A stretch of 64,000 nt of DNA from Ignavibacteriota bacterium (GCA_003162635.1 PMNE01000065.1:50398-114397), one strand, 5' to 3'; numbered from the stretch's first letter, positions 32,668 to 57,071 are shown. A program made the numbers and translations. The notes: generated by a model from the letters alone, not told the origin.

Positions 32668-34720
32668 TATTTCCCCTCACGCCGGAAGGGAGACCTGCAT
32701 CCAGCTCCTCCACTTTCCGGAGATCATCATCCTCGTACTTCATAATCGTCAGCCAGCTGTTCACCCTGTCCCCCGCAAGCGTGATCTTCGTGTGCAGGGT
32801 ATGGAAATCCTTCACGTCAGCCAGTGCCCGCTGCAGTGCTTCCCGCGTCGTGGCCCCATTCTTCACGAGGCTGAGCACGAGGAGAGCAGTGTCATAGCCA
32901 TAGAGTGTGTTGCGCGAGGGTTTCTTCTTGAAGCGGGCGACGAAACCGTTGACGAACGCCGCGTACGCCCCCCCCGTCGTATCGATGTCGCTATCCGATT
33001 CGAATGCAACGCCGCTGCAATACCTCCGGTTCGCATTCAATTCTGCCAGGTTGTTCCACTCGCCGGAGCCGAGGATCTGCGTCTGCAGATTGAAGTAGAC
33101 GATCTGGGAACAGACCACGCCGATCTCCTCTGCCGAGTTGATCGGGACGTACAGCGCTTCGATCGCATCCACGGGGTATTCAAGACTATCCGCACGCGAC
33201 TCGTCGAACATCGCGGGAATGCCGAGCGAATCAAGCGTGAACCGCGCCCGGGGACCCAGAAGCGAGATTGCGCTGATCGCGGCCCCCGTGCTCATGAGCG
33301 AATCAAGACGTGTGATGGAGACGCCGAGATGCACAAGTTTGAGGAGAGTCTGTTGACCCGTGCGGCCCCCGAACGAAATCCGCGCGTCCTCTCCGGCCTC
33401 CGCCCCCGCACGCCTGATTTTCGCAAGCGGCTGCTTCAGGTCGGACGAACCGCGCTGGTACCATTCCGTCGCCACGACGCGGGCGCCGAGGCGGGTGGCT
33501 TCGCGCACGAACGCCTCCGCGAGAAACTTCCCATAGGAATCGATGGGAGCAAGAACGGCGAGCGTCCGGAAACCGCGCGAAACGACGGCATACCGTGCCA
33601 TGGCGCGGCCGCGTGCATCATAGTCCGGGTTGGCAAGAAACACGTATTTCCCGGACGATGCCAGCCCAACGGCATTTGCCGTGGGGGTGACAAGGGGGAC
33701 TTTGCGCGCGTTGGCAACAGCCGCTGCAGACGTCACCGTGGTGGAAAAGACAGGTCCGATCACCCCGATGACCTCTTTGTCGTCGCAGAGTTCCTCCGCC
33801 CCTTTTGTCGCCAGCCGGGGTTCACGCTCCGTGTCGCGCGTTTCCAGCGTCACATTGACACGAATTCCCGGCGTCTGTTCATACTGCTCCACAGCGAACA
33901 GAACGCCGTCATACACATCGTTCCCGACTTCTTTTGCCGCCGAAGGCTCGCTCGTCCGCATCAGAGGAAGGAGCGCCCCCAGCTTCACGCTGCTTTGCGA
34001 GGCCACCCGGCCGCGAAGGGCGCTGATGCGATCCGCATACGCGGCCGACCGATAGCGGCCCGTCAGTGAATCAAGGGCAATGCCGGCGCCGACCGAGTTC
34101 TCATCCGCGGCTTCCTTCTCGGCCACCTTCAGCCAGAGATAGGCGCGGACTTCAGGATGCGCAGCCCGCGAGAGCATCTGGCGGAGGGTCGACACCCGCA
34201 GGTGCGCGTCAATGGTGGAATCGAGCGAGGCAACAACAGCGGACCCGAGTTTCGACGGCTCCTCATGCCGAAGATCACCGAGCGCCGTCAGGAGCATGTC
34301 TGTCGCCTCCTCGTATCGCTCGATTTTTTCATACACGAGGCCGATGACGTGTTCCGCATCCGGAACATACTCGCTGGCGGGAAAACGAGTAAGGAATGCC
34401 TTCATCGTTCTTGCAGCGTCGAGATTTTCGCCGGCATGATAGAGCGCCTTCCCCTTCATGACGAACGCTGCAGTGATCCGCTGTGAGGAGGGGTATTCCC
34501 GCACCAACTGGTCGAATCGCGCTGCCGCATCGCGATACGTCCCTGCATCGTAGCTCGTCAATGCCGCGCGGAACTGTCGCTCGGCGGCTTCGGAATACTC
34601 CACGCGCGTCTGGGCGCCGAGCACGCCATGCGAAGCGCCCACGGCGAGAAGAAGGCAGAGAGCAAGGTATCCGGGTCCCATCGAGGTGCACCCTCCGACT
34701 GTGAGAAACCTGCGCGGCAT
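32648..34720 (-). CDS. TPR-repeat / type-1 periplasmic binding protein fusion (LpoA-like architecture; substrate unknown)
   Basis: ORF from 34831; start MPRRFLTV (34720) with signal peptide. N-terminal TPR-like helices, C-terminal Leu/Ile/Val-binding-protein-like fold. Confidence 0.65.
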   Translation of the reverse strand: MPRRFLTVGGCTSMGPGYLALCLLLAVGASHGVLGAQTRVEYSEAAERQFRAALTSYDAGTYRDAAARFDQLVREYPSSQRITAAFVMKGKALYHAGENLDAARTMKAFLTRFPASEYVPDAEHVIGLVYEKIERYEEATDMLLTALGDLRHEEPSKLGSAVVASLDSTIDAHLRVSTLRQMLSRAAHPEVRAYLWLKVAEKEAADENSVGAGIALDSLTGRYRSAAYADRISALRGRVASQSSVKLGALLPLMRTSEPSAAKEVGNDVYDGVLFAVEQYEQTPGIRVNVTLETRDTEREPRLATKGAEELCDDKEVIGVIGPVFSTTVTSAAAVANARKVPLVTPTANAVGLASSGKYVFLANPDYDARGRAMARYAVVSRGFRTLAVLAPIDSYGKFLAEAFVREATRLGARVVATEWYQRGSSDLKQPLAKIRRAGAEAGEDARISFGGRTGQQTLLKLVHLGVSITRLDSLMSTGAAISAISLLGPRARFTLDSLGIPAMFDESRADSLEYPVDAIEALYVPINSAEEIGVVCSQIVYFNLQTQILGSGEWNNLAELNANRRYCSGVAFESDSDIDTTGGAYAAFVNGFVARFKKKPSRNTLYGYDTALLVLSLVKNGATTREALQRALADVKDFHTLHTKITLAGDRVNSWLTIMKYEDDDLRKVEELDAGLPSGVRGNSEKQSP

Positions 34721-34731
34721 GATTCTTCCCC

Positions 34732-36423
34732 CTATTGATCTTTTCGCAGCGCCAGCAGTCCGAGCGCCGACGCACCGAAGAACACTATGCCGGAAAGCAC
34801 GCCGACTGCCGCGAGAGGCAGGATCACCCATGCCTGCGACGCCGACCCCCTGAAAATCAACAGTTCAAAGTACCGGTTCACCGGGAGAAAGAGAATCGCG
34901 ACGACGCAGCCAAGGTACACCATGCTGCCGAGGAAGCTCAGAGACGCCCCCTGCGATGAGGCGATGCGAATCGGATTCTTCTCCCGGTACGAGGCGAAAT
35001 AGGTCCCGGCGCCAAGATTCGCCCCCGTCAGAGTCAGTGCAACGAAGGCGGTGCAAACGAGGTTGAGAACGAAAATGGAGGGATATTCCTTCACGGCCAT
35101 TGTGGATGCGGCAGCAAGAACTTCGGACACCACAAGTATCGGGAGAAACGCCCCCACGAATTTTTGCCAGTACAGCCCCGGCAGGGAGACAGGGGCCGAT
35201 CGCACGCACCAGAAGGCATCTCCCTCCAGGCTCATGCTGGGAAACACAAAACGAAGTGCCACCGACGCGACAAAGAAACTGTTGAAGAGGAAGACGGCAA
35301 GATAGGATACTGTCCGCAGAAACGGCTGTGTCAGCTTCAATTCGAGAGACCTGATCGACGCCAGAAAGACGACAAGGAGGAGTGCCATGAGCAAGAGGTG
35401 GAGCCATTGGCTCGGCTCCCGGAGGAAGCAGAGGATATCCCTCCGGAGCAGCACATCCCTCTGGGGAGGCAGCGGCCCCCCGCGGTCCAGTCGGAACGCG
35501 CCGGCGCGCCGGAAGAGCGATATCCCGCCCCCTCCTTCCCGGCCATCCGACGCTGTCAGCCAGCTCTTATAGTAATACTGCCGCGCAAGGATCCCGGCAA
35601 CAACGAGCAGACCCGCCAGCGTCAGAAACAGCGCAAGAAGATTGCCGACGGCCCTCGCGTGGTCCCCCATCATGGTCCAGTAGAGATATTCAGCGACCCA
35701 ATGATTTGGCAGGTAGCGCACGAACGGAGGGTCAAGGTAGCCGAAATACGCATTGACATCCGGATAATGACGCATCACTTCGGCGACGAGGGAGACCGGA
35801 TTGGTCAGGTAGAAATACACATAGATCACCCCCATGTACAGCAACGCCACGCCGGAGAGAAGCCATCGGATGCCGACGAACGCCGCCACCCTGATCAGGA
35901 TCATGAGCAGGATCACCGCCGACAGCGCGGCAATCAGCATGAAAGGAACGAGGACGGCGAACAGAGTGAACAGGTAGAAGTACCATGGCATCGCAAACGA
36001 AGAGCCGTATCCGAGCAGGAGAGCAAGCCCGAGCAGGAGAAGCGTGCTGGAGCTGTAGAAGAAATTGTCGATGAACTTGACGACAAAGATCTTCGCATGC
36101 GAGAAAGGAAGAGCCACCAGAAACTGGACCTCCTCCGAACGGTAGAGCGTCGCGTAACAGACGATCATGTTCCCAAGGTTTACCGTGATAAAGAACACGT
36201 AGAGGAGCATGGAGAGAAAACGGTGGAAGAGGAACATGCCGATGTGTTCCTGCTGGAGGAGGTACACTGTCGCCGACCGGGAGAGAAGGAAGACGCCGGC
36301 GGCGACACTGCACGAGATAAGCATCGAAGCAATGTTCTTCAGCAGGCTCGCCGGCCGAAAGTCCGTTGCCCCTTTCAGGAAAATGCTCGACTTGACGTTG
36401 AGGGCGCTCAGTATTTCGTGCAT
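34732..36423 (-). CDS. ABC transporter permease, large polytopic
   Basis: ORF from 36558; start MHEILSAL (36423) 7 nt after ATPase stop; ~12 TM helices. Confidence 0.65.
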   Translation of the reverse strand: MHEILSALNVKSSIFLKGATDFRPASLLKNIASMLISCSVAAGVFLLSRSATVYLLQQEHIGMFLFHRFLSMLLYVFFITVNLGNMIVCYATLYRSEEVQFLVALPFSHAKIFVVKFIDNFFYSSSTLLLLGLALLLGYGSSFAMPWYFYLFTLFAVLVPFMLIAALSAVILLMILIRVAAFVGIRWLLSGVALLYMGVIYVYFYLTNPVSLVAEVMRHYPDVNAYFGYLDPPFVRYLPNHWVAEYLYWTMMGDHARAVGNLLALFLTLAGLLVVAGILARQYYYKSWLTASDGREGGGGISLFRRAGAFRLDRGGPLPPQRDVLLRRDILCFLREPSQWLHLLLMALLLVVFLASIRSLELKLTQPFLRTVSYLAVFLFNSFFVASVALRFVFPSMSLEGDAFWCVRSAPVSLPGLYWQKFVGAFLPILVVSEVLAAASTMAVKEYPSIFVLNLVCTAFVALTLTGANLGAGTYFASYREKNPIRIASSQGASLSFLGSMVYLGCVVAILFLPVNRYFELLIFRGSASQAWVILPLAAVGVLSGIVFFGASALGLLALRKDQ

Positions 36424-36430
36424 GGGCCCG

Positions 36431-37138
36431 TCATTTTGTAAGGTCCAGGAACAACGCCTCCAGTTCTCCATTCTCCCGCTTCCGGGAGTCCTGGATTTCC
36501 TCGTGGATGATCCGCCCCCGCTGGATAATGGCGATCCTGTCGCAGAGTTCTTCGACAATCTCCAGAAGATGGGTCGACATGAAGATGGTGACCCCCTGTT
36601 CCGTTCTCTTCTTCAGGAGGTCCTTCACCAACCGGGCACTGCGGGGATCGAGCCCCACCATCGGCTCGTCGACGATCAGCACTTTGGGGTCGTGCAGCAG
36701 CGCCGCCGTAAGGACGATCCGCTGTCTCATCCCCTGCGAGTACTCCTCCGCCCGTTTGTCAACGAAGTCCCCCGTCTCAAAGATGTCCACGTATTCTTCG
36801 ATCCGCACCCTGAGATCTGCCTTCGACAGACGGAAGAGTCCGCCGACAAAATAGAGAAACTCCCGGCCGGTGAGCTTTTCATAGAGGAAGGGTTGATCCG
36901 GCACATACCCGATGGACTGCTTCGCCGCGAGGGGGTTCTTTTGGACGTCGAAGCCGTTGACGAGGCAGGATCCCGAGGTCGGCGCGTAGAGACCTGTCAA
37001 CATTTTGATCGTTGTGGTCTTTCCCGCCCCGTTGGGACCCAGGAAACCGAAGAATTGTCCCCGCTCAATCCTCAGGGAAACGCCATCGACGGCGGCAAAA
37101 GTGCCGAATTTCTTGGTGACGTTGTGCAGTTCAATCAT
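36431..37138 (-). CDS. ABC transporter ATP-binding protein
   Basis: 235 aa; Walker A GPNGAGKTT, signature YSQGMRQR, Walker B LIVDEP. Confidence 0.9.
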   Translation of the reverse strand: MIELHNVTKKFGTFAAVDGVSLRIERGQFFGFLGPNGAGKTTTIKMLTGLYAPTSGSCLVNGFDVQKNPLAAKQSIGYVPDQPFLYEKLTGREFLYFVGGLFRLSKADLRVRIEEYVDIFETGDFVDKRAEEYSQGMRQRIVLTAALLHDPKVLIVDEPMVGLDPRSARLVKDLLKKRTEQGVTIFMSTHLLEIVEELCDRIAIIQRGRIIHEEIQDSRKRENGELEALFLDLTK

Positions 37139-37183
37139 CGCAACTGTTCTTTCTATGCCGCAAAGGGGAGAGCATGACGGCGA

Positions 37184-37927
37184 TCAGCGGGCACCCGATC
37201 GCACTCCCCGCAGGAGGCGGGCATGCGCGTGCTGCAAGCGGCGCGCGATTCTCCCCGCGTACGGGTTAAAGCGCCACATGTCTCTGAATATCTGCCCCGT
37301 GTCGTTCCCCGCGATCGTGACGAGTGCTGCAAGATGCCGATACGAAGGAGTGGACCAGGCATGCGGTGCAATCCCCGCTGCCGGGATGAGGCGCCCGACG
37401 TACTGGCTGAGCAGTAACGTCTCCGCCATCATCCGGTCATGCTCCATGGGCGTCATCACATGAAAAAGGACTCCCACACGGCGCGCCTCTCTTTTCGCCG
37501 CTTCAAGCCGCCTGGATGACACCCTCACGGGGCAGAGGACGATCCTCTGTCCCTTGAGAGAGCCCGTATCGCTGTCCGGCCCGAACAAGGGGTGCGTGCC
37601 AAGGATCTCCACATCGGGGGGGAGAATTTCCTTCATCCATCGCACCGGCAGCGTCTTCACCGAACAGACATCGACCACCAGCGTCCCAGCCTTCACATGG
37701 GAGCGGATGGAACGAAGGGCTGTACGGAGGGACGACATAGGGACCGCCAGAACCACGATCGGCTGCGATGCGGCCTGTGCCATCGTCCCACGCCTGACCC
37801 GCGCAGGAAGTCTTCCGGTCCGCGCTCGTTGTGCGTCATACACGACAACATCGCTCCAGCCGGCGAGATAACGCGCAGCCAGCAGCCCAAACCTACCGCA
37901 GCCTATCAGACCCACCGCGGGCTTCAT
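37184..37927 (-). CDS. tyrA: prephenate/arogenate dehydrogenase (no CM domain)
   Basis: 247 aa; NAD-binding GLIGCGRFG, PDH catalytic region. Confidence 0.75.
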   Translation of the reverse strand: MKPAVGLIGCGRFGLLAARYLAGWSDVVVYDAQRARTGRLPARVRRGTMAQAASQPIVVLAVPMSSLRTALRSIRSHVKAGTLVVDVCSVKTLPVRWMKEILPPDVEILGTHPLFGPDSDTGSLKGQRIVLCPVRVSSRRLEAAKREARRVGVLFHVMTPMEHDRMMAETLLLSQYVGRLIPAAGIAPHAWSTPSYRHLAALVTIAGNDTGQIFRDMWRFNPYAGRIARRLQHAHARLLRGVRSGAR

Positions 37928-39276
37928 CGGTCGACGAGTTCCCTTTGCGATGTCTTGGCAAGCTTGAAGACGGCCCGGAACATCTGCTCCACAAACCGGA
38001 CATCCAGACGGAGATCGCGCGCCACGCCAAGTTGCTTCTTCAGGACGGCCTGCTCCCGTCCCTTGTCGAGCACGCGCGACCCGCGTTTCTTCTTGAGCGC
38101 TCCGATCTGGCGGACAAGGCCCTGGCGTTCACTGAGCAGAAGGACGATGTTGTGATCGATCAGATCGATCGTATCGCGAAGGTCCTGCAGCTTGCTCTTT
38201 CTTGCAAGAAGACGCTGCCGCGTCATGTGATCGATGAGGGTCAATGCCACCATCCCCTCCGCAACCGGCACGACGCGGGGACATATGCAAGGATCGTGAC
38301 GCCCCCCGACCGTGATGACCGCCGGCGCCCCTTCCACGGTGACCGTCTCCTGTTCCTTGCGGATCGATGAGGGGGGTTTGACCGCAATCCGGACAATAAT
38401 GTCTTCGCCGTTGGAGATTCCTCCGGCGATGCCGCCTGCGTTATTCGTCCTTGTCCGGACCCGACCCGTGCCCTTTTCCACGTACATCGGATCGTTATTC
38501 CGGCTCCCCTTGAGGCGTGCGGCCGCAAACCCGTTGCCGACTTCGAACCCCTTGATCGCCCCGATGGACATCAGTGCCTTCGCCAGATCGGCCTCAAGCT
38601 TGTCGAACACCGGTTCTCCCAGACCCAGCGGCGGGTTCATCACGATCACCTCGACAACGCCGCCGACGGAATCTCCCTCCTTCTTCGCTTTCAAGACACG
38701 CCGCTCCATCACTTTCGCCGCGAGGGGGTCTGCGCACCGCAGGGGATTCTGTTCGATCACCGAGCGGTCGAACGTTTTCGCGCGGACTCCCGCTGCCTCC
38801 ATCGTGTGCCCGATGATCTCGATCCCCCGCCGGGCAAGGATGTTCTTCGCAACGGCACCCGCTGCAACCCGCGCAGCGGTTTCACGGCCGGAGGATCGCC
38901 CTCCCCCCCGATAGTCGCTGATGCCGTATTTGGCAAGGTAGGTGAAGCCCGCATGCCCGGGGCGGAATACGTCTTTGAGCTTCTCGTACGCCTTCGGCTG
39001 CTGGTCCTTGTTCCACACGATCATGCAAATGGGCGTCCCTGTGGTCCTGCCTTCGTACACACCGCTCAAAATCTCCACCTGGTCGGTTTCCTGGCGCGAC
39101 GTGGTCAGCTTGCTCTGTCCCGGCCGGCGCCGTTCAAGTTCATGCTGTATGAATGCCAGATCGATCGGGAGACCCGGGCGTACGCCGTCGATCACCGCGC
39201 CAATCGCCCGGCCATGGCTTTCCCCGAATGTGGTGATTCGAAAGTGATTGCCTATCGCATTGCCTGCCATGGTCAT
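37924..39276 (-). CDS. aroC: chorismate synthase fused to C-terminal AroQ-type chorismate mutase domain
   Basis: 450 aa. Residues ~1-355 are AroC (GESHGRAIGAVIDG...). C-terminal ~90 aa (LQDLRDTIDLIDHNIVLLLSERQGLVRQIGALKK...VLKKQLGVARDL...VEQMFRAVF) match the AroQ CM helix-bundle consensus. Confidence 0.8.
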   Translation of the reverse strand: MTMAGNAIGNHFRITTFGESHGRAIGAVIDGVRPGLPIDLAFIQHELERRRPGQSKLTTSRQETDQVEILSGVYEGRTTGTPICMIVWNKDQQPKAYEKLKDVFRPGHAGFTYLAKYGISDYRGGGRSSGRETAARVAAGAVAKNILARRGIEIIGHTMEAAGVRAKTFDRSVIEQNPLRCADPLAAKVMERRVLKAKKEGDSVGGVVEVIVMNPPLGLGEPVFDKLEADLAKALMSIGAIKGFEVGNGFAAARLKGSRNNDPMYVEKGTGRVRTRTNNAGGIAGGISNGEDIIVRIAVKPPSSIRKEQETVTVEGAPAVITVGGRHDPCICPRVVPVAEGMVALTLIDHMTRQRLLARKSKLQDLRDTIDLIDHNIVLLLSERQGLVRQIGALKKKRGSRVLDKGREQAVLKKQLGVARDLRLDVRFVEQMFRAVFKLAKTSQRELVDR

Positions 39277-39333
39277 TCACAAAAAGGATGTGGATCCGGT
39301 GTACCTCCGCCAGCGACTTCTGCTCCCGGGTTC

Positions 39334-40599
39334 TTACGCAGGGCGCAGGCGGTCGAACTCCGTCCAGAATTCCGGGAAGGACTTCCTGACGCATTCAGGG
39401 TTTTCGACCTCGACTCCCGGAACGCGGAGTCCGATGAGTGCGAAGCTCATAGCCAAACGGTGATCATCATGGACGTCAAGACGCGCGCCCCGGAGGGGGA
39501 CAGGGTTGACCTCCATTGTCTCCCCGTTCATCCGCACATCTGCTCCGAGCTTCCGCAGCTCCGCTGCCAGCCCCTCTCCCCTGTCCGACTCCTTGTAGCG
39601 GAGGTGAGCAACATGCAGGATGCGCGTCCCCCCCTCCGCAAAAAGTGCGACAGCAACGAGGGTCGGAACGACATCGGGCATCCCGTTCATATCCACTTCC
39701 GTTCCCCGCAACGCCCCTTCCCGCAGAACGGTGAGTCCACGATCGTGTGCGCGGATGTCGCAACCCATCGCACGGAGGACATCCGTGAATCGCGCGTCTC
39801 CCTGCAACGAATCTTCCCGCACACCGGGAAGGAAGACCCTCCCTCCGGCAATGGCGGCGGCTGCCATGGGATAGGATGCACCCGACGCATCCGGTTCCAC
39901 TTCATACTCCGCAGGGACGTACCGTTGCCCGCTCCTCACGGTGAAAGTGCCTGCTTCGCCTTTCTTTGCTTCGACACCGAACGCCCGCATCACTTCAGTG
40001 GTCAGGAGCACGTAGGGAGCAGACGCCAGGTCCTCCACGACCCTGAGAGTGGTGTCCCTGAGCGCGCACGGAGCGACAAGCATCAGCGAAGAGAGAAACT
40101 GCGAGCTGCGGGAACTCCGGACTTCCACACTCCCTCCGGCGAGCGCGCCTCCCCTGACATCGAACCTGCTTGTCCCCGGGTGCCAATCGATCTGAATTCC
40201 CTGCTGCTTCAGCGCTGACAGGAGATCGTCGTTGGGACGGGCGGCCATCCGTTCGTCCCCCTGCAGCGACGTCGTCCCTTCTGCCACTGCGGCCACCGAG
40301 AGGAGAAACCGGAGAGTCGTTCCGGCGTTCCCCACAGGAATTGGAAATTTCGGTGCGAAGAGCCGGCCCCCCGTCCCTCCGACAATCATGTCCGTGCCTG
40401 AGCGGCGAACCAGGACGCCGAGCTGGTTCAACCCGTTCGCCATGAACGCCGAGTCGTCGCTGTCCGACGCGTTCCGGATCGTCGACTCCCCCTGGGCAAG
40501 CGCAGCGCAGACAAGGGCCCGATTCGTCAAGCTCTTCGAGCCGGGGACACGGAAAACGCCGTCAACCGGGCCGCCTGTTCGGATCTCCCTGATCATCAA
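39334..40599 (-). CDS. aroA: 3-phosphoshikimate 1-carboxyvinyltransferase (EPSP synthase)
   Basis: 421 aa; canonical EPSPS motifs (LPGSKSLTNRAL...). Confidence 0.92.
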   Translation of the reverse strand: MMIREIRTGGPVDGVFRVPGSKSLTNRALVCAALAQGESTIRNASDSDDSAFMANGLNQLGVLVRRSGTDMIVGGTGGRLFAPKFPIPVGNAGTTLRFLLSVAAVAEGTTSLQGDERMAARPNDDLLSALKQQGIQIDWHPGTSRFDVRGGALAGGSVEVRSSRSSQFLSSLMLVAPCALRDTTLRVVEDLASAPYVLLTTEVMRAFGVEAKKGEAGTFTVRSGQRYVPAEYEVEPDASGASYPMAAAAIAGGRVFLPGVREDSLQGDARFTDVLRAMGCDIRAHDRGLTVLREGALRGTEVDMNGMPDVVPTLVAVALFAEGGTRILHVAHLRYKESDRGEGLAAELRKLGADVRMNGETMEVNPVPLRGARLDVHDDHRLAMSFALIGLRVPGVEVENPECVRKSFPEFWTEFDRLRPA

Positions 40600-40605
40600 A
40601 TGATC

Positions 40606-42060
40606 TCAGGATCGTTGCGAGAGTATTTCCTTCATGGCATCCATGTCCGGGGCAATACCCGCGTAGAGCCGGAACTGTCGTGCCGCCTGATTGATGTACA
40701 TTTCCGTCCCCTCGATGGTCTGCGCCCCGACTGCCGCCGCAGCCCGGAGAAGTTCCGTCACGGGAGGATTGTACACAACGTCAAAGACGAGCTTGCCCTG
40801 AAGCATTGAGGCAGGGGCCGGAGAACCGGCGATGTTCGGCGCCATGCCGATCGTCGTCGCATTAACAAGAATATCGAAAAAAATGGACCTAATTTCTTTC
40901 ATTTCAATATGTTGTATGTGCAAATCGAATGCAAGACGCCGCGCTCTTTTCTCCGTCCTGTTTGCGACGAGAACAACGGCTCCCCTCTTCCTTGCCTCGT
41001 ATGCAATCGCTCTTGCGGCTCCCCCAGCACCCAGGAGAAGGATGGTCTTCCCCGCCACGCTGGTCCGCTTTTCGATGGCATCGAGAGCTCCAGGAGCATC
41101 GGTATTTGTTCCCCACCATCCGCCACGTCGACGGAGGACGGTATTGACTGCTCCGATGGCCTTTGCTCTCCCATCGATCGCCTGCAAATATTTCATCACA
41201 CCCGCCTTATGGGGGATAGTAACGCTGAAACCCTTCAGAACGGGCGCCGCCCGTTTCATAAAGCGGCCGAGGTCGGCGACCACGAAACGGCAATAGATGG
41301 CGTTCTTGCCGGCACGGGAAAAGAGGGCATTGTGAACGAATATTCCCTTGCTCTGACCGACGGGATTGCCGATCACTCCGAATATTCTCGTCGTTCGCTT
41401 TCGCCGGTCCGCCCGATACACATCCTTGAGCATCCGGGCGCTCACCTGCCCCGGAGCCGCCGGTTTCCCTTCCTCCGAAGAAGCATATGTTGCCCATCCG
41501 CCGAACACCCGGTAGAGCACCCTGCTCGGTTCCCCTGCATCCCCCATGGCGATGGCAACGGCCTTCCGTCTCTCTTTCCCGGCCAATGTCAGGAATTCCC
41601 ACGCAAGGGCATTTTGCCACGCATCGGTCGCATGGAACGCGAATTTCAACACATCTGCATCGAACCTGCTCATGGTTCGGTACACTCCCCGCACGTTCAC
41701 CGTTGCCCCCTTCGGGAGATGACGCGAGAGGATGACGCCTGTTTCCCTCCTCCGGGCAAGGAATCCCGAAAGAAACCGCCTGGAAGTTCCCATCTCGATG
41801 TCGACGTAGTCCGCCCCGAGAAGCGAGGCAGATGACAGGATCTCGACCCTTGCCGCTTCTGAACCGCGGAAACCTCCCCCCTCCCATGCAGGTCTGCACG
41901 TCGCGACAATCGGCTTCGCGGTGGAGAGCATCAGGGTGGCAATCGCCGGCGCGCGGATGAGATCGAGACGGAATTCAAACGCGTCGGCAAATCGGTCGGA
42001 TGATGCCACCTGGGCCAGAGCATCGCTCATTGTCGGCCCCGTAATCGAAACGATGATCAC
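40606..42060 (-). CDS. aroDE: bifunctional 3-dehydroquinate dehydratase (type I) / shikimate dehydrogenase
   Basis: 484 aa. N-terminal type I DHQase (~230 aa) followed by AroE (GVIGNPVGQSKGIFVHN...LLLGAGGAARAIAYE). Confidence 0.85.
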   Translation of the reverse strand: MIIVSITGPTMSDALAQVASSDRFADAFEFRLDLIRAPAIATLMLSTAKPIVATCRPAWEGGGFRGSEAARVEILSSASLLGADYVDIEMGTSRRFLSGFLARRRETGVILSRHLPKGATVNVRGVYRTMSRFDADVLKFAFHATDAWQNALAWEFLTLAGKERRKAVAIAMGDAGEPSRVLYRVFGGWATYASSEEGKPAAPGQVSARMLKDVYRADRRKRTTRIFGVIGNPVGQSKGIFVHNALFSRAGKNAIYCRFVVADLGRFMKRAAPVLKGFSVTIPHKAGVMKYLQAIDGRAKAIGAVNTVLRRRGGWWGTNTDAPGALDAIEKRTSVAGKTILLLGAGGAARAIAYEARKRGAVVLVANRTEKRARRLAFDLHIQHIEMKEIRSIFFDILVNATTIGMAPNIAGSPAPASMLQGKLVFDVVYNPPVTELLRAAAAVGAQTIEGTEMYINQAARQFRLYAGIAPDMDAMKEILSQRS

Positions 42061-42171
42061 GACTCTCTCCCTTCATCTATAGTCACAGAGAGACCGGATT
42101 TCCGAACCCCAAAGGAGTTTCCGGCGTGAACAACGTTTCCCATCCAACCTGCCCCTGCATCCTGCGAGAGA

Positions 42172-43266
42172 TTATTCATACAAGAACATATCGATGCAAT
42201 TGATGAACTCCGGGGGGACACGAACACCGATGGCACACTCACCTATGGCACGGGGAAGAACGAACGCCGTCCCCCGTGCATCGCCCTTCTTATCCATTGC
42301 CAGCGAGGACCGGAGCGTTTTCCAGTCAATTTTCCGCGGTGCATTCGTCGGCAGGTGCATAAGGTGGAGCACGTTCTCCAGCCGTACGGCAGTCTCCGGC
42401 GCGGTCAAACCGAGGGCGACGGCCAGACGTGTCTCGGCCATCAGGCCGATCGCGACACCGAATCCATGCTTCAGCCGGTAGCCGGTCGAGGCTTCCAGCG
42501 CATGTCCAATGGTATGCCCCAGATTAAGGGATTTCCGGAGGCCGGATTCAAACTCATCGCGTGCGACGACTGCTCCCTTAAGTCCGACCGCCCTGGTGAT
42601 GAGCCGGGTGAGGAGGCGATGATTCGATCGAGTGATGCGCCCTCCCAGGAGTTCGAGCGATCGGAAGAATTCTGCATCGAGGGCTGCGGCGATCTTCACG
42701 ACTTCTGCAAGGCCGTTTGCAAACTCCACTGCCGGAAGCGTACGCAAAAACCGCGGGTCAATGAACACGGCAACGGGCTGATGAAACGCCCCCAGGAGAT
42801 TTTTCCCCGCCGGGTGGTCAATCCCGACTTTCCCTCCGACGCTGCTGTCGACCTGCGCGAGGAGCGACGTTGGAACCTGGACAAACCTGATTCCGCGCAG
42901 CACCGTCGAGGCGACATAGCCGGCGAGGTCTCCGATGACGCCGCCGCCCAGCCCAACAACAAGACTGTCCCGTTTCACGCGTCCACGGAGGAGGCGCGAC
43001 TGGAGGGAAAGGGCCATGGCGGAGGACTTCGACCGTTCCCCGGCCGGAACTGTCAGCAGAATCGCATCAGTGCCGAGGTGCAACAACCTTTTGAGCAGGA
43101 CCCTGCCATACCGGGGTGCGACGTGACGGTCGGTGACAATGAAAATGCGTCCGCCCCCCGCTATGTGCGCAAGACGGCGGGGAAGGGTCCCGAACAACCC
43201 GGAGCGGATCGTCACGGTGTATGACCTGTCCCGAAGGGGGGCAAGCCGTATCTGGATCTGCGGCAT
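42172..43266 (-). CDS. aroB: 3-dehydroquinate synthase
   Basis: 364 aa; AroB motifs (GGGVIGDLAGYVAST...). Confidence 0.9.
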   Translation of the reverse strand: MPQIQIRLAPLRDRSYTVTIRSGLFGTLPRRLAHIAGGGRIFIVTDRHVAPRYGRVLLKRLLHLGTDAILLTVPAGERSKSSAMALSLQSRLLRGRVKRDSLVVGLGGGVIGDLAGYVASTVLRGIRFVQVPTSLLAQVDSSVGGKVGIDHPAGKNLLGAFHQPVAVFIDPRFLRTLPAVEFANGLAEVVKIAAALDAEFFRSLELLGGRITRSNHRLLTRLITRAVGLKGAVVARDEFESGLRKSLNLGHTIGHALEASTGYRLKHGFGVAIGLMAETRLAVALGLTAPETAVRLENVLHLMHLPTNAPRKIDWKTLRSSLAMDKKGDARGTAFVLPRAIGECAIGVRVPPEFINCIDMFLYE

Positions 43267-43476
43267 AGGAAGACTTCATCGATGACGGAACAAACAAAAA
43301 ACCTTCACCTTTCACCGGTGGAGGTTACAAAATGTATATGCAAATCAAGACAAAAAGTCAAGGCGTGGAGAACCACCTCCTTCCCTCCCTCCCAGGTCTG
43401 CGGCAGGCGAAAGGAGCACTTGGAACTCCCGCCGCCGTTTCGTATCTTTCATGGCAGATCATCCATCCGCCGCGTC

Positions 43477-44175
43477 GTGCAGAAGCAGAACATCCGCTCA
43501 CTTTTTGATTCCATCGCCCACCGGTATGATTTTCTCAACCATGTGCTGAGCGGCGGGACCGATTATCTCTGGCGGCGCCGGGCGATCGATCACCTTCGCG
43601 ATCTCCACCCGCTTACCATTCTTGATGTTGCAACCGGCACTGCTGATTTTGCGCTTGCGGCCATGCAGCTTGGCCCCCAAGAAGTGGTCGGAATCGACAT
43701 TTCCGAACAAATGCTCAATCGCGGGAGGGCGAAGATCATACGCCGCGGATTCGATCGTACCATTGCGCTCAGGACGGGAGATGCCGAGAACCTTGAGTTT
43801 CCCAATGACAGATTTGATGCGGCCATCGTTGCGTTCGGCGCGCGGAACTTCGAAAATCTTGAACGCGGGCTCTCGGAGATGTTCAGGACCCTTCGGCCGG
43901 GAGGAAGAATCGTCGTCCTGGAGTTCTCTCGTCCATCCCTTTTCCCCGTCAAGCAGCTCTACTTTTTCTATTTCCGCCGCATCCTCCCGCTCATTGGGCG
44001 AATCGTCTCGGGAGACAGGCAGGCGTACAACCACCTCCCCGAGACAGTGATGAGATTTCCGCAAGGCGAGGCATTTCTTGCGATCTTGAGGAAAATCGGA
44101 TTTGCCCTGGCGGAAGACGATCGCCTGACCTTTGGCATTGCCTCCATCTATACCGGGACCAAGCCCCTGCGATGA
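43477..44175 (+). CDS. ubiE: demethylmenaquinone/ubiquinone methyltransferase UbiE/MenG
   Basis: ORF track from ATG 43282, only 15 nt from the divergent aroB start. GTG 43477 gives MQKQNIRSLFDSIAHRYDF, parallel to the MenG N-terminus; SAM motif ILDVATGTADFA. Start uncertain (TTG 43420 also possible). Confidence 0.8.
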   Translation: MQKQNIRSLFDSIAHRYDFLNHVLSGGTDYLWRRRAIDHLRDLHPLTILDVATGTADFALAAMQLGPQEVVGIDISEQMLNRGRAKIIRRGFDRTIALRTGDAENLEFPNDRFDAAIVAFGARNFENLERGLSEMFRTLRPGGRIVVLEFSRPSLFPVKQLYFFYFRRILPLIGRIVSGDRQAYNHLPETVMRFPQGEAFLAILRKIGFALAEDDRLTFGIASIYTGTKPLR

Positions 44176-44663
44176 CCCATACCCTCCACCGGGGCGGGAT
44201 CGAGATCAGCACCGACCCATCCCGCCTCGACATCGATGTCATCTATGGATTCCTCACCCGGTCGTACTGGGCGGAGCAAATCCCCCGGGCCATCGTCGAG
44301 CGTTCTCTGGCCAACTCGATCTGCTTCGGTGCATACCGGGGGAATGCGCAGATCGGCTTTGCCAGGGTGATCAGCGATGAAGCCACCTATGCGTACCTCG
44401 CGGACGTTTTTGTCCTGGAGCCGTTCCGCGGCCGGGGAGTGGGAAGTCTTCTGATGGAATGCATCACCTCGCATCCGGATTTGCAGGGCTTGCGACGGTG
44501 GACGTTGCTCACCCGCGACGCTCATGGTCTGTACCGACGCTTCGGCTTTGACGAACCGAGGAATCCGGAGCGCTTCATGGAAATCAGCAACCCCGACGTC
44601 TATAAGACCGCCTGTTCCCCTGACGAGGAGAAGAAGAGAAGCGATCCGATGACCCCCGAATGA
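44172..44663 (+). CDS. GNAT family N-acetyltransferase
   Basis: 163 aa; ATGA overlap with ubiE stop; motif RGRGVGSLLMEC. Confidence 0.8.
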   Translation: MTHTLHRGGIEISTDPSRLDIDVIYGFLTRSYWAEQIPRAIVERSLANSICFGAYRGNAQIGFARVISDEATYAYLADVFVLEPFRGRGVGSLLMECITSHPDLQGLRRWTLLTRDAHGLYRRFGFDEPRNPERFMEISNPDVYKTACSPDEEKKRSDPMTPE

Positions 44664-44739: not shown

Positions 44740-45576
44740 ATGGCTGACAGAATTGTGAAGGTGGGACACAGTCCCGATCCCGATGATGCTTTTATGTTCT
44801 ATGGTCTTGCCAGCGGCAAGGTGAAACTTCCCGGCATTGCGATCGAGCACCTGCTGGAAGACATCCAGTCGCTGAACGAGCGGGCGCAGCGCGCCGAGCT
44901 GGAGGTCACCGCCATCTCAGCTCACGCCTTTGCCGCCGTGGCCGACAAGTACTGGATCATGAGAACCGGCGCAAGCATGGGCGAGGGATACGGGCCCGTG
45001 CTTATTTCGCGGAAATACCGATCACTCGAAGATCTGCAAGGGAAGACGGTGGGTACCCCCGGTCCGTTGACGACCGCCACCTTGCTGTTCAAGACCTTTA
45101 CCAGCGGCATCCGCAATATCGACATGCCCTTCGATGCCATCATGGAAGCAGTGGACAATGGAAAGGTCGATGCAGGTCTCCTCATCCACGAAGGACAGAT
45201 TACGTATCATTCGCTGGGGTACAACAAAGTGCTCGACTTCGGCGAGTTCTGGGAGAAGGAGACGGGAGGCCTGCCGCTGCCGCTGGGGCTTGATGTGGTT
45301 CGGAAGGACCTGGGGGAGGATATGGCACAACGGCTTTCCATCGGGTTGCGCGACAGCATCGCCTACGGTTACGCACACCAGGATGAATCGCTCCCCTACG
45401 CTCTCCGTTGGGGCCGGGGGATCAGCTCGGCATTGGGCGAGAAGTTTGTCAAGATGTACGTGAGTGAACTCACGATTGATATGGGGGAGAAGGGGAAGCA
45501 GGGACTTGAGTTTCTCTTCCGCAGGGCGCAGCAGAAGAACCTGGTCGGCGCGATCCCCCCCATCGTCTTGTATTGA
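44740..45576 (+). CDS. MqnA/MqnD family menaquinone biosynthesis protein (futalosine pathway)
   Basis: 278 aa; N-terminal VGHSPDPDDAFMFYGL typical of MqnA/MqnD (PBP-like fold). Cannot distinguish MqnA from MqnD by eye. Confidence 0.7.
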   Translation: MADRIVKVGHSPDPDDAFMFYGLASGKVKLPGIAIEHLLEDIQSLNERAQRAELEVTAISAHAFAAVADKYWIMRTGASMGEGYGPVLISRKYRSLEDLQGKTVGTPGPLTTATLLFKTFTSGIRNIDMPFDAIMEAVDNGKVDAGLLIHEGQITYHSLGYNKVLDFGEFWEKETGGLPLPLGLDVVRKDLGEDMAQRLSIGLRDSIAYGYAHQDESLPYALRWGRGISSALGEKFVKMYVSELTIDMGEKGKQGLEFLFRRAQQKNLVGAIPPIVLY

Positions 45577-45606: not shown

Positions 45607-46707
45607 TCAGACCGCAACCTCCGCGGTGGGGATCACGCGGAGAATCTCATACAGCGTCGTCCGTTGCGCGGCAGAGAACCCCGCATCGTGAATCAGCCTG
45701 ACGCATTCCTCGGTGCTGGTCGTATTCACGAAATTCGCCGCGGCATGGACATTCTCTTCTTGCAGCGTCCCGCCGAAATCATCCGCACCGAAATGCAGCG
45801 CCATCTGGCCCGTCTTCTTCCCCTCCGAGAACCATGACGCCTGGATGTGAGGGAGATTGTCCAGGTAGAGCCTGGAAAAGGCGATCATCTGCAGGTAGCG
45901 CGTCGGCGTCGCATAGTGAGGGATAATCTTCTCCAGCGGAGTGTTCCCCGGTTTGAAGCTCCACGGGATGAAGGCGGTAAATCCGTTTCCCTCATCCTGG
46001 ATTTGCCTGACCAATTCCAGATGTTCAACGACATCCTCTTCATTCTCGAGATGCCCGTACATCATTGTGGCAGTAGTCTTGTATCCGATCCGATGTGCCT
46101 GCTTCATCACCCCGGCCCAATCAGCGCTCGTTCCCTTCAGGCGGCTGATCTTCTTCTTCACGCGATCGGAGAGTATTTCCGCCCCCCCTCCCGGCAATGA
46201 GCGCAAACCGGCATCCCATAACTCACGCAGGACCTGTTCGGTCGACATGCCGGCGCCATGCGCCATCCCGATGATTTCCGACGTCGAGAAGAAGTGCGGG
46301 AACACCTCCGGCACTTCTTTCCGGGTCCGCCGGACCAGCTCTTTATAATAGTCAAAGGGAAGGGAAGGATGCACGCCCCCCTGCAGCAGGACTGTTGTCA
46401 CCCCATGCCCGGCTGATTCCTTGAATTTGCCGATCATATGATCAACAGTGTATGTGTACTCCCCTTCCTCCCCGGGATGGCGGTAGAAGGCACAGAAGAT
46501 GCAGTCGATCGTGCAGACGTTGGAGTAGTTCGGGTTGGTGTCAACAACAAAAGTGACCTGTTGCCCGGGATTTTTCCGGAAGCGGATCTCATTGGCTGCC
46601 TCGGCCAGATCGAGCAGCTCGGCGTGGCGATAGAGTTCGATCCCCTCCTCGCGGGTGATCCTCTCTCCCTCGCGGGCCTTCGCAAGAATATCCTGAACGT
46701 ACATCAT
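45607..46707 (-). CDS. radical SAM enzyme, MqnC/MqnE family
   Basis: 366 aa; CxxxCxFC cluster motif (CTIDCIFCAF), CofH/MqnC/MqnE architecture. Confidence 0.75.
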   Translation of the reverse strand: MMYVQDILAKAREGERITREEGIELYRHAELLDLAEAANEIRFRKNPGQQVTFVVDTNPNYSNVCTIDCIFCAFYRHPGEEGEYTYTVDHMIGKFKESAGHGVTTVLLQGGVHPSLPFDYYKELVRRTRKEVPEVFPHFFSTSEIIGMAHGAGMSTEQVLRELWDAGLRSLPGGGAEILSDRVKKKISRLKGTSADWAGVMKQAHRIGYKTTATMMYGHLENEEDVVEHLELVRQIQDEGNGFTAFIPWSFKPGNTPLEKIIPHYATPTRYLQMIAFSRLYLDNLPHIQASWFSEGKKTGQMALHFGADDFGGTLQEENVHAAANFVNTTSTEECVRLIHDAGFSAAQRTTLYEILRVIPTAEVAV

Positions 46708-48581
46708 CCCTCCCGACTGTCTCCGTTTCCCACGCCGCTGGCGGCCAATTCCGCCTGGAAGCGCCTGAAAACACGGATGGCCTCCTGTTCCCGCTCGCCC
46801 AGCTTGTAATTGAAGCCCTCAAGATACTCCTGCGTCTCCGCCTCTGTCAAACCGATCCTTCTGCCATGGGTTCCGGCAATCGAGGCAAAATCGTCACCGC
46901 ACGCATCCAGCGATCTCTCCAGAAGCCCGGCCAGATCACGCCGCGACTCTTCCGGAAGCGCTTTCCGGATCGCCCACACAGCGAAGACAAACGGAAGTTT
47001 CTGCCACTCATACCACTCGCTGGCGAGGTCGAAGACGAGTTCGAATCCATCCAGCCCCGCCTTGTTGTGCCGGAGGGCTTCATCTCCGATCAACAGCACG
47101 GCATCGAACCGGGAACAATCGTTCACCCCGGCATGGAGCCGTTCAAAGGTCGCATGAACATGGTACTTCTTTTCCAGAAGAACGCGGAGAAGCTGGACCG
47201 ACGTTGCCGTATCGTCGGTGATGCCGATCGTTTTCCCTTCAAGATCACGCCATCCTTCCTTCGAGAAGAGCATCACGCTTTTCACCTGGTCGCGCGTTGC
47301 GATGCACCACCCGAGGGGTTCGAGCACATCCTCCAGCCGGAGAAAGTCCATCAGGGAAAACAATCCAGCGTCGAGTTCTCCCTGCGCTGCCAGGACCCCC
47401 ATCCGCCGCGGGACGACGGGAAGAAGCCGGAACTGCTGCTTCTCCAGATGCGCGTGAAAGGGGACGGAATTCAAATACGGGATCTTCCCGATGACGTTGT
47501 CAGCGTAGACATGGATCGGGTTATAATAGACATCGCGCTCGACGGGAATCTTCCCCGCATCCCGGATCATCTGGATGAGCTTTTCCTTTGCGATGGTCGT
47601 TGGGCTGGTTGCGCCCGCATCGTGGGCGATCTTCTCACCCCCCACCGTTCCGTCGATGTCATCCGCGCCGAAATTCAGGGCCACCGAAGTCACTTCCTCG
47701 GTCAGCATCACCCAATATGCTTTGATGTGCGGGAAGTTATCGAGCATGAGACGGGACACCGCGATCGTCTTGAGGTCGTCGATTGCCGACGTGAACATGT
47801 TTCTCGGTTTGATCCCCGTCTCCCCGGGCTGGAACGCAAGCGGGATGAATGTGAGGAATCCCCCCGTTTCATCCTGCGCGTCGCGGAGTTTGATCATGTG
47901 AATGAGCCGTTCTTCCAGCGTTTCCACGTGACCATAGAGCATGGTGCTGTTCGTCGGGATCCCAAGCCGGTGCGCGGTGCTATGGACATCGAACCACCCT
48001 TTGGCGCCGATCTTCTGGTTGAAGAGAAGTTTCCGGACCCGCTCCGAAAATATCTCCGCCCCGCCACCCGGCATGGTTTTCAGGCCGGCCGCCTGGAGTT
48101 GCCGGAGTACCTCTTCGATGGACATCCGGAATTTCTTGTGGAAGAAGTCGATCTCCACAGCCGTAAAGGCCTTGACATCGGCTTCGGGGAGCCGGTGGTG
48201 GATGGTGCGGACGAGGTCGAGGTATCGTTCCCATGGCCAATCGGGAGGCATGCCGCCGGTAATGTGGACTTCCCGGATCTCCGGCGTCAGCTTTGCCAGC
48301 ACATCCTCCGTGGTCATCTCGTAGGCGCGTTCATCACCCTTCTTTGCGGCAAAGTCGCAGAACTTGCAGGAGAGGACACAGATATTGGTGTGTTCGATCT
48401 TCTGATTCAGCACAAAGTAGACCGCATCACCGCTCTTGGCCTGTTGCACCTCGTTCGCCATCCGTCCGAGCGCGATGACGTCCTGGGTCGTGTACAGGGC
48501 CAGGCCGTCCGCAAGCGTCAGGCGTTGCCCCTGCTGTATTTTGTCCCAGATGGGGGCGAGTTTTCTGTCACGTATGTTCAT
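46704..48581 (-). CDS. fusion: radical SAM MqnC/MqnE-family domain + C-terminal MqnA/MqnD-family domain
   Basis: 625 aa. N-terminal ~370 aa with CVLSCKFC radical SAM motif and MqnC/E-like body; C-terminal ~250 aa PBP-like domain resembling MqnA/D. ATGA overlap with downstream gene. Confidence 0.7.
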   Translation of the reverse strand: MNIRDRKLAPIWDKIQQGQRLTLADGLALYTTQDVIALGRMANEVQQAKSGDAVYFVLNQKIEHTNICVLSCKFCDFAAKKGDERAYEMTTEDVLAKLTPEIREVHITGGMPPDWPWERYLDLVRTIHHRLPEADVKAFTAVEIDFFHKKFRMSIEEVLRQLQAAGLKTMPGGGAEIFSERVRKLLFNQKIGAKGWFDVHSTAHRLGIPTNSTMLYGHVETLEERLIHMIKLRDAQDETGGFLTFIPLAFQPGETGIKPRNMFTSAIDDLKTIAVSRLMLDNFPHIKAYWVMLTEEVTSVALNFGADDIDGTVGGEKIAHDAGATSPTTIAKEKLIQMIRDAGKIPVERDVYYNPIHVYADNVIGKIPYLNSVPFHAHLEKQQFRLLPVVPRRMGVLAAQGELDAGLFSLMDFLRLEDVLEPLGWCIATRDQVKSVMLFSKEGWRDLEGKTIGITDDTATSVQLLRVLLEKKYHVHATFERLHAGVNDCSRFDAVLLIGDEALRHNKAGLDGFELVFDLASEWYEWQKLPFVFAVWAIRKALPEESRRDLAGLLERSLDACGDDFASIAGTHGRRIGLTEAETQEYLEGFNYKLGEREQEAIRVFRRFQAELAASGVGNGDSREG

Positions 48582-48611
48582 TCTTCACCATGGTCGTGGC
48601 GCATCATCGTT

Positions 48612-50381: not shown

Positions 50382-50929
50382 TCTAACTCCTCCCGGCGCC
50401 ACCCCCGCGAATTCGTGACGCCAAGTTGAGCGAGGACCTTGTCGGTGAAGGCGCCGACGTACTCGCCGACCGTCTCGGGAACGAAATAGAGCGGGGAGGA
50501 AATCGGCATGATCACTGCGCCGTACCCCGACAGGCGGGCGCATTGCTCCAGCGTAAGGGTGGAAAGGGGAGTCTCGCGGATGCAGAGGATCAGTGGAAAC
50601 CGCTCCTTCAGACAGACCTGGGCGGTGCGCGTGATCAGCGTGTCGCCGATGCCGGAAGCGATCTTCCCGACGGTCGATGTCGATGCCGGCAGGATGACGC
50701 ACGCATCAAGGACGTTTGACCCTGAGGCCATGGGGGCCGTCAGATCATCGTCGGAATAGACACGGTCGACGAACGGAAGGAGATCCTTCTCCCCCATCTT
50801 CAGTTCATCCCGCAGCAGTACTTTCCCCCACGCGCTCGTGATGAGAAATTTCTTCGGCGGACATTTCTTCAGGAAATCCAGCGCATAGACGGCGCCGGAC
50901 GATCCCGTGATACCGACGACGATTTTCAC
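50378..50929 (-). CDS. ubiX: UbiX-family flavin prenyltransferase
   Basis: ORF from 50956; likely GTG start VKIVVGITGSSGA at 50929 overlapping UbiA-like stop. Confidence 0.85.
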   Translation of the reverse strand: MKIVVGITGSSGAVYALDFLKKCPPKKFLITSAWGKVLLRDELKMGEKDLLPFVDRVYSDDDLTAPMASGSNVLDACVILPASTSTVGKIASGIGDTLITRTAQVCLKERFPLILCIRETPLSTLTLEQCARLSGYGAVIMPISSPLYFVPETVGEYVGAFTDKVLAQLGVTNSRGWRREELE

Positions 50930-51759: not shown

Positions 51760-51766
51760 TCCGGCC

Positions 51767-54795: not shown

Positions 54796-54911
54796 TGGGT
54801 GTTCTCCTTGTCGGGTACTGTCGGTGCACGACCGCCCCGATTCATTCGCGCATCCAATGGATGCGATTGATGGATTTGCACGGAAACCCTGCAGGGTGTC
54901 CCCGGCGGCGT

Positions 54912-55856: not shown

Positions 55857-55885
55857 CCCTCCCCCTTCGTCCTGCGACAATTTGC

Positions 55886-56842: not shown

Positions 56843-57071
56843 TGCGTCGCTCCTTCTGGATTCTGTTGCACCAAACGTCGTATATTGACAATGTACGATT
56901 CCGCCCCGGCCGTTGCAACGGAAGGGGAGCGGGTGGATCCGGTCCCTATGATCGGTCAAATAGTATGCCGAAGGTGACCTGAGTTTAAATTCCATTTTCA
57001 ACGATTTCATCGCCGGGAGACATGGGTCGTTTCCTATCTGTAGGAAGAAGAGAACAACGCGAGGGAAAGCA

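Follow-up and report, generated by a model that had tools for sequence, protein, structure and literature searches.

Does a chorismate mutase (CM) domain attached to the end of chorismate synthase work as a mutase, and is it the only mutase that its host has? This question is raised by a shikimate gene cluster at positions 37184-43266, on the minus strand, of a 64,000-nucleotide stretch of DNA from an Ignavibacteriota bacterium (GCA_003162635.1, PMNE01000065.1:50398-114397; the window hereafter), where the chorismate synthase gene aroC continues into an AroQ-type CM domain. A first-pass annotation of this DNA had described five genes here, aroB, an aroD-aroE fusion, aroA, the aroC-CM fusion and tyrA, and had proposed that the fused CM is the only one. 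A check of the open reading frames (ORFs) together with Pfam and NCBIfam searches bore out all five genes, their coordinates, strand and order, and both domain fusions. Judged from its sequence and from a structural model, the 450-amino-acid (aa) product of aroC-CM is very likely a genuine bifunctional chorismate synthase-chorismate mutase and is probably active.

Architecture and conservation of the AroC-CM protein

The greater part of the protein is a complete chorismate synthase. Residues 12-351 match PF01264 (Chorismate_synt) with E=5.8e-139 and 462.8 bits, and the curated NCBIfam cutoffs are exceeded both for NF003793 (473.2 bits vs 321) and for TIGR00033 (residues 12-355, 453.8 bits vs 212.2). 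In an alignment of 81 fusion proteins, H21, H108 and R326-H327-D328 are invariant; the histidines of GESHG and RPGHA and the GRHDPC segment are, as we assume from AroC structures, active-site motifs. By sequence search, the best matches of this part in the PDB are the chorismate synthases 1R52, 5Z9A and 4LJ2, which cover residues 3-355 only, and the same search found no PDB chain with both AroC and CM domains.

The C-terminal extension had been read as a CM domain, and the Pfam scan identifies it as a bona fide AroQ/CM_2 domain with its catalytic residues kept: PF01817 (CM_2) matches residues 366-444 over profile positions 1-79 of 80, with E=1.1e-17 and 64.4 bits, where the gathering score is 27. 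The arrangement is not peculiar to one assembly. In a search of 5.8 billion proteins, each of the best 120 clusters of homologues (69-100% identity, 439-470 aa), drawn from independent NCBI, JGI, ENA and Logan assemblies, was annotated with PF01264 as well as PF01817, and a protein identical to the 450 aa of the window (P0122) occurs on 18 contigs, the longest of 294 kb. Entries of 108-292 aa in the same cluster that are named 'chorismate mutase' or 'chorismate synthase' proved to be C-terminal fragments of the fusion, not separate genes.

Over its final 95 residues the protein can be aligned gap-free with the E. coli enzyme EcCM (1ECM), and of the eight active-site residues of EcCM it has seven. 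Counted over the 120 homologues, the residues equivalent to EcCM R11, R28, K39, R51 and Q88 (R367, R384, K395, R407 and Q444, respectively) are invariant, D404 (EcCM D48) is conserved in 118, and E408 (EcCM E52) in 111, the other nine having Gln. At the eighth position, A440, which corresponds to EcCM S84, 114 homologues have Ala and six have Ser. By these comparisons the CM domain looks catalytic. Two observations weigh against an active mutase: the replacement of EcCM Ser84 by Ala, and the failure of the domain to reach the NCBIfam equivalog cutoffs, the best being TIGR01791 (CM_archaeal, 55.2 bits vs 66.95), followed by NF004925 (52.5 vs 77). The CM equivalog models of NCBIfam describe particular monofunctional or other-fusion subfamilies.

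An AlphaFold2 model of the monomer, built on the 81 fusion sequences, has a pLDDT of 86.8. In it, the last helix of AroC runs from 332 to 357; after a four-residue break (358-361) come the CM helices H1 (362-398, 37 residues), H2 (405-421) and H3 (426-449), where the pLDDT is 87-94; the modelled CM part has the three-helix, all-alpha AroQ topology with a long H1. AroQ mutases depend on forming intertwined dimers, and AroC is tetrameric. By analogy with these two parent families, the fusion protein would likely assemble as an AroC tetramer bearing two CM dimers.

Proposed contribution of the fused domain to prephenate synthesis

In the scheme that we propose, the AroC part would turn 5-enolpyruvylshikimate 3-phosphate (EPSP) into chorismate, which the CM part of the same polypeptide would rearrange to prephenate. 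Both tyrosine and phenylalanine would then be made from prephenate, probably via arogenate. The translationally coupled TyrA would carry out the step to tyrosine, and an unlinked protein composed of prephenate dehydratase (PDT) and ACT domains the step to phenylalanine. The fusion would thereby set the branch-point enzyme beside the source of its substrate.

How much of the cell's prephenate would come from this protein depends on whether there is a second CM. The stretch examined for one comprised the 64-kb window and about 10 kb past each end, reached through identical proteins on longer contigs, that is, about 84 kb of a multi-megabase genome. [quoted passage not shown] A hidden Markov model of AroQ, run on all six-frame ORFs, gave exactly one match in the window and one per related locus; as a positive control, it detected unrelated CMs in three other loci (L024, L026 and L027). 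Neither of the window's proteins that might have carried a CM does so, as had been noted: TyrA matches PF02153 only, and PheA matches only PF00800 (PDT) and ACT. The accompanying remark that CM is usually fused to one of these two enzymes applies mainly to Proteobacteria. The AroC-fused CM is thus alone in about 84 kb, and we consider the chances about even that it is the sole CM of the genome.

What tells against its being the sole one is that a second CM elsewhere is plausible, either fused to DAHP synthase, the arrangement of Bacteroides and Porphyromonas (PMC1173090; PMC12202928), or as a monofunctional AroQ or AroH. The corresponding alternative, that the fused CM is active and redundant, with the other CM most plausibly on DAHP synthase or else a small monofunctional AroQ/AroH, contests only the claim of a sole CM and not the fusion, and we regard it as a serious possibility, somewhat short of an even one. 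In Bacteroides thetaiotaomicron an aroA(I-beta)-aroQ fusion adjoins tyrA (PMC1173090, Table 7), the Porphyromonas DAHP synthase-CM is a studied bifunctional enzyme (PMC12202928), and the lack of DAHP synthase and shikimate kinase within about 84 kb means that part of the pathway is encoded elsewhere. On the other side, neither TyrA nor PheA supplies a CM, the strict lineage-wide conservation of the CM catalytic residues argues for real flux through the domain, and, in the distant locus L038 described below, the DAHP synthase beside an AroC-CM fusion is without a CM domain.

A stronger proposal, which we consider rather unlikely, is that the AroC-fused CM is the lineage's only one and that its two active sites are functionally coupled, by proximity channelling or by cross-talk as in the DAHP synthase-CM enzymes. 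If this were true, a single protein would set the split of chorismate between phenylalanine and tyrosine on the one hand and the adjacent futalosine route to menaquinone on the other, and it would be the first chorismate synthase with output controlled at the enzyme level. Any channelling would not be obligatory and would be partial at most, because the futalosine pathway, which begins at chorismate, and tryptophan and folate synthesis, which also use it, must be supplied as well.

We think it improbable that the C-terminal AroQ domain serves chorismate synthase chiefly as a regulatory ligand sensor and is not the cell's working mutase. By sequence, the domain matches best, within the PDB, the N-terminal CM-like domain that Listeria DAHP synthase carries (3NVT), with 5J6F and 5GMU as equivalents, and CM domains on DAHP synthases mediate allostery, as reported in PMC12202928 and PMC5526877. 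Yet the catalytic residues are kept as in the fully active EcCM, even the CM domains linked to DAHP synthase usually retain some CM activity, and in the operon the domain is positioned where the pathway needs a mutase, directly before tyrA. Moreover, chorismate synthase is not known to be allosterically regulated.

Still harder to credit is the possibility that the AroQ fold here belongs to a PchB-like isochorismate pyruvate lyase or to a 4-amino-4-deoxychorismate mutase. The PchB structures were matched weakly (E ~3e-3) and the isochorismate lyase model NF005475 reached 30.9 bits vs 126, but all CM models outscored it, and there are no isochorismate synthase or aminodeoxychorismate genes nearby, the neighbours being tyrA and the shikimate genes. 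Finally, an assembly or frameshift artefact joining separate aroC and CM genes, which the first-pass annotation had itself argued against, deserves practically no credence, as the frame is open through the junction with no stop, the linker has zero indels among the 120 homologues, and the same architecture and length recur in all 120 best clusters and in 23 species-level metagenome-assembled genomes (MAGs).

Distribution of AroC-CM fusions and comparison with known CM fusions

These 23 MAGs came from a scan of 185,579 genomes, the GTDB species representatives, for two peptide patterns specific to the family's CM domain. All of the 23 species are uncultured, and they were deposited as Ignavibacteriota, Ignavibacteria, Bacteroidota, Chlorobi, Chitinophagales and similar; the aroC homologues of related taxa do, then, carry the extension. 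By tblastn, essentially all 23 loci share one arrangement: mqnC, a VitK2_biosynth gene, (a GNAT gene,) ubiE and, divergently, aroB-aroDE-aroA-aroC-CM-tyrA-ABC ATPase-ABC permease. In L018 ('Chlorobi CHB1') tyrA is absent at this position. The ABC ATPase lies directly past tyrA in 21 of the 23 loci (63-78% identity, tblastn), and the synteny of the ABC_tran_2-family membrane gene is also kept. The organism of the window itself was found in Stordalen Mire ('WOOD18') and in other metagenomes. This uncultured Bacteroidota/Ignavibacteriota lineage normally has both the fusion and the operon.

Outside the lineage, we compared AroC proteins in a table of the best 150 representatives of clusters at 50% identity, in which the window's own family has no obvious representative and the counts of fusion clusters are lower bounds. 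Among unfused AroC proteins, the nearest share 56-58% identity with the window's, and the top match among the representatives is itself unfused (57%); one unfused AroC, P0144, stands alone with no aro neighbours. At least 11 further AroC-CM fusions occur among these best 150, in varied gene contexts. A distant one (44% identity), in a Myxococcota MAG (GCA_041686345.1; L036, 190-5799), lies in the series aroB, aroDE, aroA, aroK, aroC-CM, which has the same order as in the window, the aroD-aroE fusion included, except that aroK precedes aroC-CM and no tyrA follows. In another genome the context consists of aroA and aroC-CM only. In L038 (5139-7697), AroC and CM are part of an 852-aa four-domain protein, AroC-CM-AroE-AroK (P0268), in an operon with aroB, aroA, a type II dehydroquinase gene and a gene for DAHP synthase without a CM domain. 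This shikimate operon holds every step, and the fused CM is the sole CM in it. Like the fungal AROM protein, the L038 product is a multi-enzyme shikimate protein; it is bacterial and has a different domain set.

In a tree of AroC domains (a rough neighbour-joining tree without support values), the window's family forms a single fusion clade, the other fusions are scattered among unfused proteins, and parsimony requires eight state changes. Between different fusion lineages the CM domains share only 22-32% identity, which is no more than each shares with EcCM. Because of this scattered placement and because the CM domains are as distant mutually as they are from EcCM, AroC-CM fusions in unrelated lineages probably arose independently, several times. 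The first-pass description of the fusion as uncommon is therefore fair for bacteria as a whole, where it is rare, but not for this lineage, where it is the rule, and the fusion recurs in other phyla. AroC is also fused to shikimate kinase both ways, as AroK-AroC in P0142 and as AroC-AroK in P0184, and AroC proteins with N-terminal extensions of 380-430 residues, candidate EPSP synthases, are present as well (set P0142, P0184, P0202, P0213, P0260).

AroQ-type CM domains have been described in fusion with PDT and TyrA (PMC10520331; PMC1173090), with cyclohexadienyl dehydratase (PMC10520331) and with DAHP synthase (PMC12202928). The P-protein (CM-PDT-ACT) and T-protein (CM-TyrA) of E. coli have the same domain of about 90 residues with the same catalytic residues, and in them, too, consecutive steps are fused; their CM is N-terminal on the downstream consumer of its product, whereas that of the window is C-terminal on the upstream enzyme that makes its substrate. 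In the DAHP synthase-CM fusions, known in the same superphylum (PMC1173090; PMC12202928), CM likewise sits on a shikimate enzyme of the common pathway; it is C-terminal in Bacteroides, Porphyromonas and Prevotella and a CM-like N-terminal domain in Bacillus, Listeria and Geobacillus (3NVT, 5J6F). In contrast to these, the partner in the window is the last common enzyme, and the two reactions are consecutive. The Clostridium CM-shikimate dehydrogenase (3FBT) and the exported CM-cyclohexadienyl dehydratase (PMC10520331) illustrate that AroQ CM joins aromatic enzymes readily, with partners different from AroC.

We found no published description of an AroC-CM fusion in a search that left out most subscription-journal papers, so an earlier mention is possible. 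The survey PMC9885046 contains nothing on such a fusion, and PMC10520331 never mentions chorismate synthase. There was no AroC/CM model among the NCBIfam matches, although models exist for CM fused to prephenate dehydrogenase (PDH), for CM/PDT and for DAHP synthase/CM. The AroC-CM pairing is genuine and has apparently not been described before; it departs only modestly from the CM fusion enzymes already known. Because the public names of these proteins give 'chorismate synthase' alone, as do the source annotations, pathway reconstructions may wrongly report a missing CM, and phenylalanine and tyrosine auxotrophy, in these bacteria, which are abundant in soil, fens and bioreactors. Aromatic metabolism branches mainly at chorismate, and a fusion of chorismate's maker with one of its consumers would be a simple natural design to bias flux to phenylalanine and tyrosine, of use to metabolic engineers, who already make synthetic fusions in this pathway. 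The biochemistry involved is well known, which makes the finding useful rather than surprising.

The aro operon and its neighbours

The genes of the cluster and its surroundings are listed in Table 1. On the minus strand, the five genes aroB, aroD-aroE, aroA, aroC-CM and tyrA are followed by two ABC-transporter genes, and the stop codon of aroC-CM and the start of tyrA share four nucleotides (ATGA). The real start of the ABC_tran_2-family gene is probably downstream of the longest-ORF start. The gene pheA is unlinked to the operon, 14 kb off. Rfam and tRNA scans of the whole window gave no match, and there was no riboswitch, T-box or leader near the operon. Promoter and terminator counts in 34000-44500 were at or below the shuffle expectation and marked no operon boundary, Bacteroidota-type promoters being outside the tool's coverage. 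Long plus-strand ORFs of 425-1053 aa at 46866-50027, 38806-40218, 54783-56246 and 35164-36441 run antisense to verified genes and had no Pfam match where tested; we regard them as shadow ORFs of the kind usual in DNA of 60% GC, not as genes. Such ORFs could mislead a reading of the bare sequence.

Table 1. Genes and domains of the aro cluster and its surroundings, in window coordinates unless a related locus is named.
Feature	Position	Strand	Size or residues	Evidence and remarks
ABC_tran_2-family membrane protein, conserved partner of the ATPase	34732-36558	-	<=608 aa	PF16949 E=8.5e-65
ABC transporter ATPase	36431-37138	-	235 aa	PF00005; 45 bp past tyrA
tyrA, short plant-like TyrA-family dehydrogenase	37184-37927	-	247 aa	PF02153 E=9e-17
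aroC-CM fusion gene	37924-39276	-	450 aa	stop codon 37924-37926
Linker and putative AroQ-type CM domain	37927-38211	-	residues 356-450	CM_2 366-444 = 37945-38181
AroC domain	38212-39276	-	residues 1-355	PF01264, NF003793, TIGR00033
aroA, EPSP synthase	39334-40599	-	421 aa	TIGR01356 400.2 bits vs 287.25; PF00275 E=1.4e-110
aroD-aroE fusion	40606-42060	-	484 aa	
aroE part, shikimate dehydrogenase	40609-41385	-	residues ~226-484	PF08501, PF01488, PF18317; TIGR00507 225.8 bits vs 200.2
aroD part, type I 3-dehydroquinate dehydratase	41416-42060	-	residues ~1-215	PF01487 DHquinase_I at 4-215, E=6.5e-39
aroB, 3-dehydroquinate synthase, operon gene 1	42172-43266	-	364 aa	TIGR01357 354 bits vs cutoff 305; PF01761 + PF24621
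UbiE/MenG	43282-44175	+		
VitK2_biosynth protein	44740-45576	+		
MqnC	45607-46707	-		above NCBIfam cutoff
MqnE-MqnA-like fusion	46704-48581	-	625 aa	
UbiD-type menaquinone decarboxylase	48612-50702	-		above NCBIfam cutoff
UbiX	50378-50956	-		
UbiA/MqnP-like prenyltransferase	50926-51840	-		
pheA, prephenate (or arogenate) dehydratase + ACT	57072-57920	+	282 aa	PF00800 E=8.6e-63, PF01842; NF008865 234.5 bits vs 219
Dabb-like ORF, related locus L005	7166-7594	+	~100 aa	
Dabb-like ORF, related locus L014	7308-7637	+	~100 aa	
Dabb-like ORF, related locus L017	4022-4330	+	~100 aa	
Dabb-like ORF, related locus L018	7307-7669	+	~100 aa	

The TyrA protein is closest to the plant-type members of its family. 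Its best PDB matches are the soybean PDH1 structures 5T95 and 5T9F, and PF02153 (PDH_N) is matched with 61.4 bits vs 26.5, while the score stays below all NCBIfam prephenate dehydrogenase equivalogs (110 vs 310). H112, which corresponds to the catalytic His124 of GmPDH1, and D209, which corresponds to the specificity position 222, are both invariant in 23 homologues from the lineage. In plants and related bacterial TyrAs, Asp or Glu at position 222 denotes arogenate and a non-acidic residue denotes prephenate as the substrate (Schenck et al., PMC5681985). Because of the Asp at the position equivalent to 222, the enzyme is probably an arogenate dehydrogenase, and tyrosine would be made via arogenate. 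The name tyrA thus holds for the family, by the PDH_N domain and the catalytic His, and the activity is probably on arogenate rather than prephenate, by D209. A reason for caution is that the Asp222 rule comes from plant-like TyrA clades: the core of about 250 aa, the catalytic His and the acidic 222 equivalent are shared with soybean PDH1 (5T95) and with the plant and spirochaete arogenate dehydrogenases (PMC5681985), but the window's TyrA is only a distant relative, with 50 bits to 5T95. The window showed no gene for prephenate aminotransferase, which the arogenate route needs. The Asp that follows beta-2 (VVVYD) may point to the use of NAD rather than NADP.

The aroD-aroE fusion had been called plant-type, and this proved apt: its best solved relative is the Arabidopsis dehydroquinate dehydratase-shikimate dehydrogenase (DHQ-SDH) 2GPT, at 270 bits, with residues 9-481 aligned to 10-512. 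In the dehydratase part, the catalytic Lys and His align with those of 2GPT, as do the Lys (PHK) and Asp (NTD) in the dehydrogenase part, and the order of the two domains is common to the window's protein and the Arabidopsis enzyme (2GPT/2O7Q/6BMB). Unlike the latter, the protein of the window is bacterial, and it is under the cutoff of the bacterial bifunctional model NF006802 (186.4 bits vs 598); the aroD model TIGR01093 is also missed (116.9 bits vs 139.3).

Between aroDE and aroA, several relatives have a conserved ORF of about 100 aa (MLKHIVMWKFKE...VDY), similar to the Dabb/stress-responsive alpha-beta-barrel family, where the window has a gap of only 6 bp. A small lipoprotein-like ORF separates aroB from aroDE in L008 and L017. 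The gaps of the aroB/aroDE/aroA segment in related loci were considered as a place for aroK, and they hold these Dabb-like and lipoprotein-like ORFs instead.

A futalosine menaquinone set flanks the shikimate operon, and the divergent layout of mqn/ubiE and aroB is kept in related MAGs. One of its members is a 625-aa protein in which residues 11-356 are the aminofutalosine synthase MqnE (TIGR03700, 464.7 bits vs 434.55) and residues 364-609 match VitK2_biosynth of the MqnA/MqnD family (PF02621, E=1.2e-49). MqnA is a chorismate dehydratase. If the C-terminal domain is MqnA, the first two futalosine steps would be fused, and they would compete with the fused CM for chorismate. The protein would then be a third fusion of consecutive steps within 12 kb. 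Farther along, at 54912-57010 on the minus strand, genes for an ornithine carbamoyltransferase (374 aa) and a carbamate-kinase-like amino-acid kinase (325 aa) stand back-to-back with pheA; the pair could be part of an arginine deiminase-type pathway.

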